Origin: an uncultured Bacteroidales bacterium
Lineage (GTDB): Bacteria; Bacteroidota; Bacteroidia; Bacteroidales; VadinHA17
Direction: 5' to 3'
NCBI GenBank assembly: GCA_963789985.1
Contig: CAWBNA010000019.1
Coordinates: 400,464 to 464,463, forward strand
Length of the DNA: 64,000 nt
The position numbers were made by a program, and so were the translations under genes. Of this stretch, positions 9,734 to 15,620 are shown in pieces. The notes under the pieces are model-generated. The model ran no database searches. It was given only the letters and a program-made list of their open reading frames with translations, and was not told where the DNA came from. Position 1 is the first letter of the stretch; every line of letters starts with the position of its first letter.

Positions 9734-10399
9734 CTACGCCCAGTCGATTGGTGCAATCCCGTTACTGATAAGGTATTCGTTGCATCTGCTGAAATGCCTG
9801 TTCCCAAAGAACCCCTTTGCCGCTGAAAGCGGCGATGGATGAACTGATTCCAGCACAAGATTCATGGACCTGTCGATCGATTCACCTTTTTTCTGCGCGT
9901 ATGCCCCCCAGAGGAAATAGACAATATTCTTTTTCTCCTCATTAAGCACCTTTATGACATAGTCGGTAAATTCCTCCCATCCTTTTTTCTGATGTGAGCC
10001 CGCCTGGTGTGCCCTCACCGTAAGGGTGGCATTAAGCAGGAGCACTCCCTGGTTTGCCCACCGTGTCAGGTCACCTGATCTTTTTACCCTTATTCCAAGG
10101 TCGGATTCTATTTCTTTGAAAATGTTTATAAGGCTTGGCGGGAATTCAATGCCGTCCTTGACTGAAAAGCATAAACCGTGAGCCTGTCCCGGTTCATGGT
10201 ACGGGTCCTGCCCAAGTATCACAGCCTTCACCTTTTCAAGAGGGCAAAGGTTAAAAGCATTGAATATCAGCGATCCCGGAGGGTATATTGTTGTACTGTG
10301 ATATTCTTCCTTTACAAAGCCGGTCAGCCTGATAAAATAGTCCTGCTCAAATTCACCGCCAAGTTTCTGCTTCCAGCTTGATTCAATTTTTACATCCAT
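9734..10399 (-). CDS. ung: uracil-DNA glycosylase (family 1)
   Basis: 221 aa with catalytic motifs GQDPYH and HPSPLS. Confidence 0.95.
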   Translation of the reverse strand: MDVKIESSWKQKLGGEFEQDYFIRLTGFVKEEYHSTTIYPPGSLIFNAFNLCPLEKVKAVILGQDPYHEPGQAHGLCFSVKDGIEFPPSLINIFKEIESDLGIRVKRSGDLTRWANQGVLLLNATLTVRAHQAGSHQKKGWEEFTDYVIKVLNEEKKNIVYFLWGAYAQKKGESIDRSMNLVLESVHPSPLSAAKGFFGNRHFSRCNEYLISNGIAPIDWA

Positions 10400-10738: not shown

Positions 10739-11194
10739 ATGGTCATGGCCAAGGAAATAGAGCGCAAGTTTCTCGTAAAAGGAGAATTCAGGAATCTTTC
10801 AGGGAAAAAGGTAAATATAATACAGGCATATCTGTCTACTGATCCTGAAAGGATCGTTAGGTTAAGGATCGCAGGCGACAGGGCATTTCTTACATTAAAA
10901 AGTTTTGCAACCGGGAAAAAGATATCAAGAAATGAATGGGAGATAGAAATTCCCGTAAAGATGGCTGAAGAGATAATTGATATTTGTGTTCCGGGCAGAG
11001 TAAACAAAACACGATATTATATCCCTTTCGGAATTCATGTTTTTGAGGTTGATGAATTTCACGGTAAGAATGAAGGCCTGGTGGTTGCCGAAATTGAACT
11101 GTCAGATGAAAATGAAGTATTCGAGAAACCTGAATGGCTGGGGGAGGAGGTAACTGGAAGGCCTGAATATCAGAACTCAAACCTGATAAAATAG
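10739..11194 (+). CDS. CYTH-domain protein (triphosphate tunnel metalloenzyme)
   Basis: 151 aa with the N-terminal ExExK signature EIERKFLV. Confidence 0.8.
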   Translation: MVMAKEIERKFLVKGEFRNLSGKKVNIIQAYLSTDPERIVRLRIAGDRAFLTLKSFATGKKISRNEWEIEIPVKMAEEIIDICVPGRVNKTRYYIPFGIHVFEVDEFHGKNEGLVVAEIELSDENEVFEKPEWLGEEVTGRPEYQNSNLIK

Positions 11195-11298: not shown

Positions 11299-11778
11299 TC
11301 AGAGGACTTTGGAATAGATTTGTTTCGGATCACCGGGCGCATAGAAATCCCTGAGGCTTGCGGCCAGCTGGTATCCGTTTTTCCTGTAGAAGGTTTCAGT
11401 TGGTCCGTAAAGCGGCCTTCCTGAGGTCTCTATCCAGAGTATCCCGCCACCCATCTCCCTTACATCATCCTCAACTGCCTTAAGAATGATAGAACCCAGC
11501 TTTTTGTTTCGTGAGTTATCATGCACTGCGATCCAGTAAAGTTCCCATGAATGAGTTGAAAATTCATTCTTTCCGTAGTTGGCAAATGCGACAAGACCAT
11601 CTTCATCTTCGGCTTTCATCCAATAATACCCGCTTTTTTCAACACCCCTGGTCAATGTTTCATCAGCCAGCTCAAGAGCTGTATCTATCTCAAAATCATA
11701 GAAAAAATCTGTCGATCTTAATATTTCCTCTATGAATTTCCGGTCTTCAGGTTTTATGCCTTTTGAAATCTTTGCCAT
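11299..11778 (-). CDS. GNAT-family N-acetyltransferase
   Basis: 159 aa with acetyl-CoA loop-like SRNKKLGSIILKAV. Last gene of the kamA operon. Confidence 0.75.
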   Translation of the reverse strand: MAKISKGIKPEDRKFIEEILRSTDFFYDFEIDTALELADETLTRGVEKSGYYWMKAEDEDGLVAFANYGKNEFSTHSWELYWIAVHDNSRNKKLGSIILKAVEDDVREMGGGILWIETSGRPLYGPTETFYRKNGYQLAASLRDFYAPGDPKQIYSKVL

Positions 11779-11784
11779 GCAGAA

Positions 11785-12753
11785 TCAGTTTAAATCGTCA
11801 ATAATACGCTCAAGAACCTTTGTAAAAGGAATACCGGCTTCCATAATGGCTGCCACAAGTCCGCTGTCAGGTGAAAGGCATGGGTTTGCATTGACTTCAA
11901 TGACATAAGGGGCATTTTTTTTATCAACCCTCATGTCCACTCTGGCATAACCTTTAAGACCGAAAACTTGCCAGCATTTCAGTGCCATATCTTTTATTTT
12001 TCCGGCAAGGACAAGGTTGAGCTTCTCATGCGGAAATTCCCTTTTTGTATTTTCATATTCAAAGCTCTCTTCCACCCATTTTGCCTTGAAATCCACGATT
12101 TTAGGCTTGTCTTTATCAAAATTATGGAATACCATTTCAGCCGGAGGCATCACTTCAGGCCCGTTTTCTCCTTTCAGAACGCTGATATTAAATTCCCTTC
12201 CGTCGATATAATCCTGGATGATCCAGTGAGAATCGTCAAAATCCTTGAAATGCAGTTCATAGCCAGGTTCAAATGTAAAGACCGATTCTCCCGTAATTCC
12301 CAAAGATCCGTCTTCCCATATTGGTTTTATTATATACCTGTTTCCCGGTTTTAAAAGTTTATACTGTGAAGGCAAAAGAGAGTTGGGAGTGGGTATTCCC
12401 TCCTCATGAAGGATTTTATTCGTGAGTGCCTTGCTGGTCGTTATGAACATTGCCTCGAGAGGATTTCCCGAGTAAGGAATAGAATACATATTCAGAAGTG
12501 CAGGGATGAAATAGCAAAGCTCTCCTTTATTGTTTATCGACTCGACAAGGTTAAAAACAAAATCAGGTCTGAGTTCTGCAACTTCTGAAATCTCATTCAT
12601 GAAATCAGAAGTGATCCCTTTTCTGAATGTCACTATTCCGAGTTCATTGAGATTGGTTTCGATATATTCAACCTGGACCAGAACATCAAGTTCATCAGGT
12701 AATGCACCTTCGCGTGGTAGGTTGTACAGTATGCAACAATTTCTTTTACTCAT
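11785..12753 (-). CDS. ATP-grasp ligase, D-Ala-D-Ala-ligase-like (copy 2)
   Basis: 322 aa with ATP-grasp C-terminal motifs (GYARVDMRVD, YVIEVNANP). 4-nt overlap with the upstream ATP-grasp gene. Confidence 0.75.
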   Translation of the reverse strand: MSKRNCCILYNLPREGALPDELDVLVQVEYIETNLNELGIVTFRKGITSDFMNEISEVAELRPDFVFNLVESINNKGELCYFIPALLNMYSIPYSGNPLEAMFITTSKALTNKILHEEGIPTPNSLLPSQYKLLKPGNRYIIKPIWEDGSLGITGESVFTFEPGYELHFKDFDDSHWIIQDYIDGREFNISVLKGENGPEVMPPAEMVFHNFDKDKPKIVDFKAKWVEESFEYENTKREFPHEKLNLVLAGKIKDMALKCWQVFGLKGYARVDMRVDKKNAPYVIEVNANPCLSPDSGLVAAIMEAGIPFTKVLERIIDDLN

Positions 12754-13724
12754 ATTTCAAGATGATGTCTTTTAAGCGCAGATTTCATAATCATTTCCAG
12801 CAATTCCTGGTATTCTATACCTGTTATTCTGGAGAGGATAGGAAGGTCTGAATCGATAGGGTGCAGTCCTGCAAGCGGATTTATCTCAATCAGGCAGATC
12901 CTGCCGTTACGGTCAGTTTTGAGGTCGATTCTTCCGGCATCCATGCCTCCGAGCGCTTTCCAGGCTTTCAGTGCAACTGTTTGACATTCGGATGTATATT
13001 GGGCTTCCATCGGCTTATACTTGCAGTAAACCTGGTAATTCTCTTTCAGTTCCAGGGAATAAGGCAAATTATCCCGGCACTCAATTTCCATTCCACCGAT
13101 TGCCACTGATTCATCGCCTGAACCAATTACGCCGACAGTAAACTCTCTTCCGGGCAGATATTCTTCGACAAGGGCAGGCTGATTGAATCTTGAAAATATC
13201 CATTCAGACATTTCCTTCAGTTCAGTCCGGGAATGAACAAGGCTTTTTTCCGTAATACCTTTTCCTGTTCCTTCAGAGACCGGCTTTATGAAAAGAGGAT
13301 AATGAAGGTCGCATTTGTCAACGTCACCGGGAGATGAAATAAGCATTCCCGGACTTAAAGGTATTCCGGAGGATGATAATACAAGACGGGTAAGGTGCTT
13401 GTTCAGTGATATACCCAGTACCACTGGTCCGCTGAAAACGTAAGGTATCCTGTATTGGTCAAGAATGGCGGGAACTACCGATTCTCTTCCGTCGCCATAA
13501 AGCCCTTCGGCAATGTTAAAGACCAAATCCCATCTCTTCCCTGAACCAAGGGCTTCAATGAGCTGAAAGCAGTTGCCGATTGATTCGGTTTCGAAGCCCA
13601 TTTTATGAAGAGCATCTCCAATGGCATCAACAGTTCCCTGTTTGTCAAATTCAGCGGTATCCTCCATAGAATAACCGCGATCAAGATACCATGACCGCAA
13701 GTCAAACGTCAATCCGATCTTCAT
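12750..13724 (-). CDS. ATP-grasp ligase, D-Ala-D-Ala-ligase-like (copy 1)
   Basis: 324 aa with motifs LFIKPVSEGTGKGI, EEYLPGREFTVGV and GRIDLKTD...LIEINPLAG. Confidence 0.75.
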   Translation of the reverse strand: MKIGLTFDLRSWYLDRGYSMEDTAEFDKQGTVDAIGDALHKMGFETESIGNCFQLIEALGSGKRWDLVFNIAEGLYGDGRESVVPAILDQYRIPYVFSGPVVLGISLNKHLTRLVLSSSGIPLSPGMLISSPGDVDKCDLHYPLFIKPVSEGTGKGITEKSLVHSRTELKEMSEWIFSRFNQPALVEEYLPGREFTVGVIGSGDESVAIGGMEIECRDNLPYSLELKENYQVYCKYKPMEAQYTSECQTVALKAWKALGGMDAGRIDLKTDRNGRICLIEINPLAGLHPIDSDLPILSRITGIEYQELLEMIMKSALKRHHLEI

Positions 13725-13734
13725 TTATACGAGT

Positions 13735-14976
13735 CTATTTCTCAGGATATTCACACCTGACACCCTTATAGTTACGCAGTACAATATGTTCATCGTTATG
13801 CTCCACCACATAGTTTGGAAGAAGTGGAATTTTACCTCCTCCGCCGGGAGCATCTATAACGAATGTCGGGACTGCATAACCGCTTGTGTAGCCCCTGAGT
13901 CCATGCATGATCTCAAGACCCTTTTTTACAGTGGTTCTGAAATGTCCCGATCCGGGAATCAGGTCACACTGATAAAGATAATAGGGCCTGACCCTTATCA
14001 TTAAGAGTTTGTGCATAAGTTCCGTCATGACCGGAACATTATCGTTTATTCCTTTCAGCAAAACAGTCTGACTGCCAAGCGGAAAACCACCATCAGCCAG
14101 TTTATTGCATGCTTTTGCACATTCTTCGGTTATCTCAAACGGATGGGAAAAATGAAGGCTCAGGAAAAGCGGGTGATACTTCTTAAGGATATTGATCAGC
14201 TTGTCTGTAATACGCATCGGTAATACCACCGGTACTCTTGTTCCGATACGTATGATCTCGACATGCTTAATGCTTCTGATATTATAAAGAATATAATCAA
14301 GTGTTTCATCTGTTAGTGTGAGAGGATCACCGCCGCTAATAAGAACATCCCTCACTTCCTTATGAGCTGCGATATATTCGAATGCTTTTTCGAAATCCTG
14401 CCTTCCAAGCTTGTCGAGCTTGCCTACCGAATGTGAACGTGTACAATACCTGCAGTAATTCGAGCAAACCTGTGTAACCGTGAAAAGAACCCTGTCGGGA
14501 TATCTGTGAACAATGCCCTTTACAGGAGATGATTCCTTCTCATGCAGGGGGTCTGAATGCTCACTGACCGACACAAGCAATTCCTCGACAACAGGAATCA
14601 CATTCCGGCGCAGAGGATGCCCCGGTCTCGTATTATATATCAGTGATGCAAAATAAGGAGTAATCCTCATAGGAAGCCGGCCTTTAAGGTTATTAATGGC
14701 CATAATCTCCTTTTCGGACAATTTCATGATTTTCTTCAGATCATCAATGCTTGTGAAAGCATTTCTAAGCTGCCATTTCCAATCATTCCAGGATTCTACC
14801 GTTGTTAGGGGAAAGAAGCGGCGCATGAACTCCGCGCTTCTGTTGCTAACTAACTGATTTGGGATTACGTTTTGCGAAAAAATCGTGGTTTCCGCGCCAG
14901 GCTCTTCATCAGAAGAGCAACCCACGAGGCGGCCCTCAACGTGAAGGGCTGCGACCTCATTATTGTTAGCATTCAT
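13735..14976 (-). CDS. kamA: lysine 2,3-aminomutase (KamA-family radical SAM/PLP enzyme)
   Basis: 413 aa with radical-SAM motif CSNYCRYCTR, plus WNDWKWQLRN and ISGGDPL motifs characteristic of KamA. Confidence 0.9.
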   Translation of the reverse strand: MNANNNEVAALHVEGRLVGCSSDEEPGAETTIFSQNVIPNQLVSNRSAEFMRRFFPLTTVESWNDWKWQLRNAFTSIDDLKKIMKLSEKEIMAINNLKGRLPMRITPYFASLIYNTRPGHPLRRNVIPVVEELLVSVSEHSDPLHEKESSPVKGIVHRYPDRVLFTVTQVCSNYCRYCTRSHSVGKLDKLGRQDFEKAFEYIAAHKEVRDVLISGGDPLTLTDETLDYILYNIRSIKHVEIIRIGTRVPVVLPMRITDKLINILKKYHPLFLSLHFSHPFEITEECAKACNKLADGGFPLGSQTVLLKGINDNVPVMTELMHKLLMIRVRPYYLYQCDLIPGSGHFRTTVKKGLEIMHGLRGYTSGYAVPTFVIDAPGGGGKIPLLPNYVVEHNDEHIVLRNYKGVRCEYPEK

Positions 14977-15620
14977 AACTGTCGATGAAAATTTTCACCT
15001 TTTTGCTTGATTTTCTAGTTTTAAATCGTTATTAGTTTAAAAATAATCCGACGAAAATATATATTCTGTAAATACATTGTATCATTCGCCCCATATAAAT
15101 ATTAACATGAATTTTATTTTATTAACAATTTTTTATTTAAATTTTTAAAAATAAAATCATATCGTATTGTTAGTCAATATATTAATCATGAACCGACTCA
15201 TGCGATGGCCTTCCTGGAAAACGATATTTTTTTTGCAATTCCTCATGACCGGATTTTAAATTATTATTTGTATAAGTCATCATGATCATCACCCATTTAT
15301 TAAAATTTAAAATTGAATGTTATCAATAATTATGCCAAAATACAACGACATTCTTTTCATATGCTTTTTCATGATCATGTCTTTAATTCCTCAGTCCAAA
15401 AAAATTTGCATTATAACGAACCAATATTGCTTTAATTATTCAGAGTAAGAAAAATCATTGTTTTTATCTGTGTAAATGACAACGAACATCCTGTTTTGTT
15501 CATTTAAGCAGATATGTGAAAAAAGGATAATAAAGTTAAAATGCTTATAATGAGCTATTAATGGCTTAGACTGCCTTTACTCCTGAAAGCTGAGATTCAG
15601 GGAAGCTGAAAAGCAGGATT

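Follow-up and report, generated by a model that had tools for sequence, protein, structure and literature searches.

Gene organization of the kamA locus

We analyzed a 64,000-nucleotide (nt) stretch of DNA from an uncultured Bacteroidales bacterium of the VadinHA17 lineage (assembly GCA_963789985.1, contig CAWBNA010000019.1, positions 400,464 to 464,463), referred to below as the window, and examined an operon in it that encodes a protein of the lysine 2,3-aminomutase family (KamA), two ATP-grasp ligases similar to D-alanine-D-alanine ligase (Ddl), here called AG1 and AG2, and a small GNAT acetyltransferase. The list of open reading frames (ORFs) of the window has exactly four minus-strand ORFs at this locus, in the order KamA, AG1, AG2, and GNAT (Table 1). 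KamA and AG1 are separated by 10 nt, the AG1 stop and the AG2 start overlap by 4 nt, and the gap between AG2 and GNAT is 6 nt. The original prediction, which was made from the DNA letters, had described the same four genes over the same span and with the same spacing. The motifs CSNYCRYCTR and WNDWKWQ that it had reported are both present in the 413-amino-acid (aa) protein, and Pfam and NCBIfam assigned all four proteins to the families that it had named. AG1 and AG2 are distant paralogs with 26% identity, and each is about equally far from the genome's own Ddl. We use the term cassette for an adjacent KamA, two distantly related Ddl-like ligases whose genes overlap or nearly overlap, and usually a small GNAT resembling the protein of PDB entry 2R7H, all of which are found here. 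The arrangement is far beyond chance, as the same gene order recurs in about 60 species, and the cassette is a real pathway that is conserved to a high degree and apparently has not been described before.

Table 1. Positions in the window of the cassette genes, the features upstream of kamA, and the neighboring genes
Feature	Position	Strand	Description
KamA	13735-14976	minus	413 aa; Radical_SAM and LAM_C, KamA family (Pfam, NCBIfam)
AG1, Ddl-like ATP-grasp ligase	12750-13724	minus	324 aa; Dala_Dala_lig_C, E 4e-25
AG2, Ddl-like ATP-grasp ligase	11785-12753	minus	322 aa; Dala_Dala_lig_C
GNAT, small, non-AblB	11299-11778	minus	159 aa; Acetyltransf_1, E 2e-10
Conserved non-coding block	14977-15127	minus	Directly upstream of kamA, -150 to -1
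Direct repeats TGTTAATA, two copies	15120-15127, 15100-15107	minus	20 nt apart
Invariant 29-nt stretch ACAATGTATTTACAGAATATATATTTTCG	15052-15080	minus	In the kamA upstream block
Hairpin GGTGAA-N4-TTCATC	14984-14999	minus	Ends 8 nt before the kamA ATG
Sigma-54-type -24/-12-like motif TGGCAT-N5-TTGA	15323-15337	minus	At -361 relative to the kamA start codon; tentative
CYTH-domain gene	10739-11194	plus	Convergent with the cassette; syntenic in most of about 60 related species
ung	9734-10399	minus	Syntenic beyond the CYTH gene in most of about 60 related species

Conservation and fusion of the cassette genes

A locus scan that used one genome per species returned 80 loci. The order KamA-AG1-AG2 was kept in about 60 Bacteroidales species, mostly with the GNAT, and AG1 and AG2 adjoined wherever the contig extended far enough. 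The surrounding synteny, consisting of arfB, the cassette, the CYTH gene, ung, and a gene for a pyridoxal phosphate (PLP) enzyme, was stable as well. Mean identities across relatives were 86% for KamA, 74% for AG1, 70% for AG2, and 74% for the GNAT, compared with 77% for Ung, 62% for CYTH, and 51% for ArfB. Because the synteny is stable and the cassette identities match or exceed those of housekeeping neighbors, the cassette is inherited vertically under strong constraint and is not a mobile secondary-metabolite island.

Parts of the cassette are fused in other genomes. A search of 1.84 billion representative proteins yielded 969 representative clusters of AG2-like proteins at an E value of <1e-30, among them AG1-AG2 fusions of 640 to 730 aa and AG2-GNAT fusions of 510 to 530 aa. 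Locus L104 encodes KamA, then a fused AG1-AG2, and then a GNAT joined to a histone-deacetylase-family (HDAC) domain. KamA and AG1 are followed by a fused AG2-GNAT in L105 (49% GC) and L109 (58% GC), and all four proteins are encoded by separate genes in L110 (66% GC), so that the parts recur in loci of 49 to 66% GC. The original prediction had treated the four genes as a unit, and their common order in about 60 species, with fusions elsewhere, bears this out. Its suggestion that the product could be an osmolyte is weakened, as fens, lake sediments, and digesters, and not saline sites, are the source of most of the related loci.

KamA is most likely a lysine-type aminomutase dedicated to the cassette

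KamA aligned with Clostridium subterminale lysine 2,3-aminomutase (PDB 2A5H) with an E value of 1e-132. In this alignment, the cysteines of the CxxxCxxC motif of 2A5H (C125, C129, and C132), R134, D293, D330, and the PLP lysine K337 are all conserved. R134 is the carboxylate-binding residue of lysine 2,3-aminomutase. D293 and D330 bind the epsilon-amino group of lysine, and both are replaced in glutamate 2,3-aminomutase. The best NCBIfam model for KamA was the AblA/KamA equivalog TIGR03820, whose cut-off of 525.4 bits was not reached (498 bits). The match covers model positions 3 to 360 of 417, with 57 C-terminal positions missing, and the shortfall is due to the absence of this C-terminal region rather than to a diverged core. 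The KamA-family subfamily model TIGR00238 was passed (371 bits versus a cut-off of 199), and the models for glutamate 2,3-aminomutase (442 versus 650), arginine 2,3-aminomutase (395 versus 600), and EpmB (255 versus 369) were not.

Two known roles of such proteins were rejected for this genome. The gene clusters for lysine fermentation (kamA-kamBCDE-kdd-kce-kal) also begin with a lysine 2,3-aminomutase. However, the downstream genes are lacking here: tblastn with a verified query set found no kal, kce, kdd, kamB, kamD, or kamE anywhere in the genome, which is 99.6% complete. The second role is the modification of elongation factor P (EF-P) by EpmA, EpmB, and EpmC, in which EpmB is likewise a KamA-family aminomutase without a long C-terminal domain. 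KamA differs in failing the EpmB cut-off and in sharing only 33% identity with Escherichia coli EpmB, whose branch in a small tree was very long, and the genome has no EpmA over the cut-off, the best match to the GenX model (232 bits versus 287) being a 515-aa LysRS-like ORF. The EF-P of this genome (C13:410455-411000) carries a KPGKGPA loop. EF-P proteins of this type are reported to act unmodified, which fits the absence of EpmA. The original prediction had noted that the fermentation genes and epmA are not adjacent to kamA, which thus extends to the whole genome, and its reservation that KamA could belong to the EpmB clade with epmA located elsewhere is answered by the same results.

KamA is the only KamA-family protein encoded in the genome, and it is most likely a lysine-type 2,3-aminomutase dedicated to the cassette. 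With a sole KamA and no degradation genes, the beta-lysine formed would have no known sink except the adjoining ligases.

The KamA proteins of cassettes also differ in architecture from those of lysine fermentation. Fermentative KamAs from other Bacteroidales grouped in the small tree as a supported clade of their own, apart from the cassette type. Fermentative KamA scores 629 bits, is without the N-terminal tail, and retains a C-terminal CxCxxC region, whereas cassette-type KamA lacks about 50 C-terminal aa including this motif. Its N-terminal tail, which in the window is 58 aa long (RLVGCSSDEEPGAKT), is 86% conserved over 61 species. An acidic E-E-P-P/G motif in the tail recurs in cassette KamAs from loci of 42 to 66% GC and is absent from fermentative KamAs. 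The KamA of the window is of the cassette type, with the acidic E-E-P-P/G tail and without the CxCxxC region. The tail may be a docking, channelling, or product-sensing element.

Further KamA-related proteins were observed in other Bacteroidales. Two forms occur in long ORFs (e.g., G246:C24:19457-20500 and G086:C39:34122-35192) and are distinct from both the cassette and the fermentative types, one of about 600 to 690 aa that scored 290 to 324 bits and one of about 515 to 550 aa that scored 220 to 254 bits. In addition, a gene in locus L105 (L105:5112-5507) encodes a 131-aa protein whose C-terminal tail is extremely acidic and studded with aromatic residues (DDYDDEDYEDDEDFDYDDDDDDDFDDDDDDFDEDFEDKDDYR). 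The gene is preceded by a site that resembles a sigma-54-type promoter and followed by the cassette KamA.

AG1 and AG2 differ from Ddl and from each other in the substrate region

Both ligases matched only Ddl and Van structures and models, with scores far below all Ddl and Van cut-offs. The best Ddl model, with a cut-off of 243 bits, gave 131 bits for AG1 and 104 bits for AG2. The true housekeeping Ddl is encoded on another contig of the same genome. We aligned the AG1 and AG2 families with E. coli DdlB (PDB 2DLN/1IOV) by MAFFT and by profile-profile comparison with hhalign. The DdlB residues for ATP, Mg, and acyl-phosphate (K97, K144, E187, K215, R255, D257, E270, and N272) are kept in both families. 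In AG1, residues K109, K147, E187, E194, K227, R265, D267, E280, and N282 correspond to K97, K144, E180, E187, K215, R255, D257, E270, and N272 of DdlB, and the catalytic set of AG2 consists of K108, K143, E187, K225, R271, D273, E286, and N288.

The substrate side is different. Neither AG1 nor AG2 has the full set of D-alanine-site residues of Ddl (Y216, S281, and L282). AG1 carries a deletion at Y216 and a conserved Asp (D293) in place of L282. AG2 has an invariant Trp at the position of Y216, Cys at that of G276, and Gly at that of L282. In the region of DdlB E15, both families have a conserved acidic cluster, and the MAFFT and hhalign alignments differ there by one residue; a residue-level reading of this first-substrate site was dropped for this disagreement. 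AG1 and AG2 thus share with DdlB and relatives such as MysD the fold and the residues for ATP, Mg, and acyl-phosphate, but they differ in the model scores, in the residues at the Y216, G276, and L282 positions, and in having no linkage to mur genes. They look like catalytically intact ligases with specificities that differ from each other and from that of Ddl. The different substrate loops point to the formation of two different bonds rather than to redundancy.

A solitary AG2-like ATP-grasp protein of 420 aa was found in locus L111 (L111:8001-9263) with no KamA, AG1, or GNAT nearby. It may have a different function within the wider family.

Ligases remain under selection when KamA is supplied from elsewhere

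The link between the ligases and KamA was examined in 301 Bacteroidales genomes drawn evenly across the order. AG2 was present in 50 of these genomes (17%), which represent 43 genera and about 35 families, and a KamA-family gene was present in 110. KamA was found in 47 of the 50 AG2-positive genomes, in 36 of them within 4 kb of AG2, and in 63 of the 251 AG2-negative genomes (Fisher p 1e-20, uncorrected for phylogeny).

Eight distant loci have AG1-AG2 without a full-length KamA alongside. The GNAT is present in seven of them, and in the eighth the contig ends at AG2. Seven of the eight genomes encode a KamA elsewhere, and in the one such genome that was examined, it lies inside a complete lysine-fermentation cluster. 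In some Bacteroidales, fermentation KamA appears to supply the trio of ligases and GNAT. Two of these loci contain ORFs of 155 to 157 aa (L080:4719-5192 and L085:4564-5031) that are N-terminal remnants of a cassette KamA, and both genomes have retained a KamA of the fermentative type. The ratio of nonsynonymous to synonymous substitution rates (dN/dS) was 0.70 to 0.75 for the remnant, which is almost neutral, compared to about 0.1 for GNAT-HDAC, AG1, and AG2. Ligases that are still under purifying selection after their own KamA was lost, with another KamA present, argue for beta-lysine as the shared substrate, and this retained selection is the best evidence obtained for it.

As decaying pseudogenes, the remnants themselves would be entered by gene callers as hypothetical proteins. 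They lie upstream of the cassette and resemble free copies of the KamA tail, but a role for them as a stand-alone tail carrier protein was rejected, as they are pieces of KamA and evolve at a dN/dS of 0.70 next to neighbors at about 0.1.

These loci also bear on the possibility that the cassette modifies proteins, with beta-lysine attached to protein carboxylates much as LysX/LysW, RimK, or tubulin ligases do. The KamA E-E-P-P tail or small acidic-tailed proteins could be the targets, and the conservation of the motif in cassette KamAs over a wide range of GC contents, its absence from fermentative KamAs, and the hyper-acidic-tail protein encoded just before KamA in L105 would suit this idea. 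However, the tail-bearing remnants decay while the ligases stay constrained, indicating that the tail is not an obligatory carrier for the ligases, and seven genomes keep the ligase trio with a KamA elsewhere that we read as the tail-less fermentative type. The acidic small proteins occur only here and there, and this clade has none, and the permease and deacetylase accessories described below better suit a small molecule. Ddl-type ATP-grasp ligases, the group to which AG1 and AG2 belong, are moreover known for small substrates. We regard protein modification as distinctly unlikely and favor a small soluble product.

The acetyltransferase and other accessory genes

The GNAT matched PDB entry 2R7H over its full length (E 5e-28), which was deposited under the name "putative D-alanine N-acetyltransferase of GNAT family." This name for an ortholog of the GNAT, together with Ddl as the nearest sequence relative of both ligases, could point to the cell envelope, with a beta-lysine dipeptide used in the peptidoglycan stem, a cross-bridge, or a lipid head group. 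We consider this highly unlikely, since the ligases score far under the Ddl and Van cut-offs in a genome with a normal Ddl, no mur, fem, or lipid-transfer gene was linked in the contexts read, and the cassette occurs in only 17% of Bacteroidales genomes.

AblA and AblB make the N-epsilon-acetyl-beta-lysine of methanogens and green sulfur bacteria, and the Bacillus counterpart is kamA-yodP. The cassette resembles these systems in that a biosynthetic lysine 2,3-aminomutase is encoded with a GNAT and a small beta-lysine derivative is expected. A KamA and a GNAT in one operon indeed recall ablAB and kamA-yodP (PMC3543383, PMC9337991), and the papers on beta-lysine solutes describe aminomutase-acetyltransferase pairs only (PMC3543383, PMC9337991). 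However, the GNAT of the window scored 18.3 bits with the AblB model TIGR03827 against a cut-off of 205.1 and is not an AblB-type neighbor of KamA. It belongs to another family of much smaller proteins (159 aa versus about 266), and no AblB was found anywhere in the genome. The GNAT is dispensable and the least constant part of the cassette, while the two ligases are always present, fused in some loci to each other or to the GNAT. Cassette KamA also differs from AblA in having an acidic N-terminal tail and no C-terminal domain. AblB-type acetylation was rejected on the GNAT score and the missing AblB, and an ablAB-type reading of the operon is the least probable of those weighed here.

Other genes accompany the cassette in related genomes. 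A DMT_6/DUF486 membrane protein of 122 aa is encoded by a fifth gene in 25 close loci, placed after the GNAT gene or straight after AG2 where the GNAT is missing; this permease has been lost from the genome studied here. In several of the more distant cassettes, the inserted GNAT is fused to a histone-deacetylase-family domain, and one cassette has genes for YitT, TerC, and an MscS-type channel downstream. The histone-deacetylase family includes acetylpolyamine amidohydrolases. These accessory parts fit a small, probably cationic molecule with an amine group that undergoes acetylation, deacetylation, and transport.

Features upstream of kamA

The spacer upstream of kamA is 644 nt long and has no Rfam match to a known riboswitch or RNA family. 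In an alignment of 54 related upstream regions, the block directly preceding kamA has many columns that are at least 90% identical over the 54 species, and it includes a pair of direct repeats, an invariant stretch, and a start-proximal hairpin (Table 1). RNAalifold found no overall consensus structure for the region. Two hand-drawn hairpins in the spacer have modest support; the start-proximal hairpin is 95% paired, with three pairs changed on both sides. By nhmmer (E 2e-28), the block occurs only once in the genome, and it may be a promoter, an operator, or a 5' leader.

A regulon sharing the leader motif was not found, as the only other matches to the pair of TGTTAATA repeats lie in a repeated element that is present in five identical copies (C14:298224, C15:359013, C18:166208, C18:178448, and C35:68436). 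The copies are identical over the 320 nt read and resemble an insertion sequence, and each carries TGTTAATAAATTCATTTTCTGTTAATATTTAT, which is close to the repeat pair at 15100-15127. The common motif may reflect a promoter or protein-binding architecture shared by the repeated element and the kamA block.

Farther upstream lies the sigma-54-like motif. In 37 of the 54 loci, TGGCAY-N5-TTG occupies the same position of the alignment, with varying flanks and N5 spacer. Both rpoN and several sigma-54 activators are encoded in the genome. One distant cassette has genes for a histidine kinase and an NtrC-type activator downstream of it, and L105 has a good GGCAC-N5-ATGC site before the cassette with a sigma-54 activator nearby. 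Against this reading, the -12 GC is here mostly GA or GT, and the motif is enriched genome-wide only weakly, about 1.5- to 2-fold. A strict pattern detected no sigma-54 motif in distant cassettes. To judge from these motifs, the cassette is possibly under sigma-54-type control.

On the other side of the cassette, the CYTH gene and ung are syntenic with it, and nothing in this synteny indicates a functional link.

Spermidine genes in cassette-bearing genomes

In the same order-level sample, the gene for carboxy(nor)spermidine decarboxylase, nspC, was present in 8 of the 50 AG2-positive genomes versus 108 of the 251 AG2-negative genomes, and a true SpeE was present in 1 and 7, respectively. Either spermidine route was found in 9 of 50 versus 114 of 251 genomes (p 3e-4) and, at the family level, in 7 of 35 AG2-positive versus 54 of 113 AG2-negative families (p 0.003), all uncorrected for phylogeny. 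KamA-positive genomes without the cassette had a spermidine route in 27 of 63 cases, which is the background level. We treat the anticorrelation between the cassette and spermidine genes as a lead and not as support.

Proposed pathway and alternatives

We lean, if only slightly, toward the view that the operon is a self-contained pathway to a small beta-lysine-containing amide or peptide. In the first step, KamA would make beta-lysine from L-lysine. AG1 and AG2, probably acting as a pair, would then each form one amide bond through an acyl-phosphate at the expense of ATP. The two bonds could link the beta-lysine carboxylate to an amine and a carboxylate to a beta-lysine amine, or they could build a short beta-lysine chain. 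In an accessory third step, the GNAT would acetylate the remaining free amine and so tune the charge. The structure and families of the genes, their catalytic residues, their co-conservation and fusions, and the dependence on a KamA in the genome are observations, whereas we infer the substrates of the ligases, the order of these steps, and the product. In the version that we prefer, the product would be a soluble polyamine-like cation that becomes zwitterionic once acetylated and whose formation is regulated, possibly by sigma-54.

The original prediction had expected a product more elaborate than N-acetyl-beta-lysine. This expectation fits the data in that the GNAT is not AblB and both ligases look intact, but acetylation is not a fixed part of the pathway. 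In about one-fifth of the close relatives, the GNAT is absent or replaced by the DMT_6 membrane protein, which leaves KamA-AG1-AG2 as the conserved core.

Several observations count against the proposed pathway. The strongly conserved acidic tail of KamA is not explained by a plain small-molecule pathway. A KamA is missing from three of the 50 AG2-positive genomes, each of them a draft of 160 to 290 contigs, and in one (G297), AG2 begins 210 nt from the contig end. The substrate assignment of AG1 and AG2 is made from residue differences, and the alignment of the N-terminal domain to Ddl is uncertain by 1 to 2 positions. The spermidine depletion carries no correction for phylogeny, and the genome studied here holds nspC and the cassette together.

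A homo-oligomer is an alternative product. AG1 would start and AG2 would extend a short beta-lysine chain, giving a polycation whose toxicity or charge is controlled by GNAT acetylation, to which some lineages would add HDAC-like deacetylation and export. Streptothricins carry beta-lysine chains. The conserved core has no gene for a second building block, accessories for acetylation, deacetylation, and transport are present, and acidic tails or acidic small proteins adjoin the cassettes, all of which would agree with such a product. However, two ligases at 26% identity with unlike substrate loops exceed what a homopolymerase needs, and the vertical inheritance and housekeeping-level conservation are unlike those of antibiotic clusters. 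We consider the homo-oligomer unlikely.

The proposed pathway to a small amide or peptide can also be compared with another system that combines ATP-grasp and GNAT domains. Ngg and AsnO make N-acetylglutaminylglutamine amide (NAGGN), an acetylated dipeptide that serves as a small solute, with an ATP-grasp domain fused to a GNAT and without a ribosome or a nonribosomal peptide synthetase (NRPS). The AG2-GNAT fusions of the cassette family are similar, but their domain order is reversed, the cassette has no amidotransferase partner, and beta-lysine is the amino acid supplied. No Ngg-type model was among the best 25 of the 36 to 38 NCBIfam matches per ligase. The cassette thus lacks defining features of the AblA/AblB, Ngg-type, and Ddl systems, while it has chemistry in common with them. 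In full-text literature searches, no paper was found that describes such ATP-grasp ligases together with an aminomutase.

A bolder version of the proposed pathway would be a so far unrecognized beta-lysine polycation that takes over the role of spermidine in many anaerobes, made by two successive ligations, with a charge switch by the GNAT and, in some lineages, an HDAC-like domain, DMT_6 transport, sigma-54-type control, and sensing or docking by the E-E-P-P tail. Taken as a whole, this version is doubtful.

Implications

If the proposed pathway is correct, many anaerobic bacteria would make an unnamed beta-lysine compound, given 969 clusters of the AG2 type alone, and the producer described here belongs to a Bacteroidales clade that is common in fens, sediments, and digesters. 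Four genes would suffice for its synthesis, with no NRPS. The widespread mis-annotation of both ligases as D-alanine-D-alanine ligase would be corrected, and a function would be provided for the structural-genomics protein 2R7H and for DUF486/DMT_6. The depletion of spermidine genes in cassette-bearing genomes also raises the possibility of a link to polyamine physiology.

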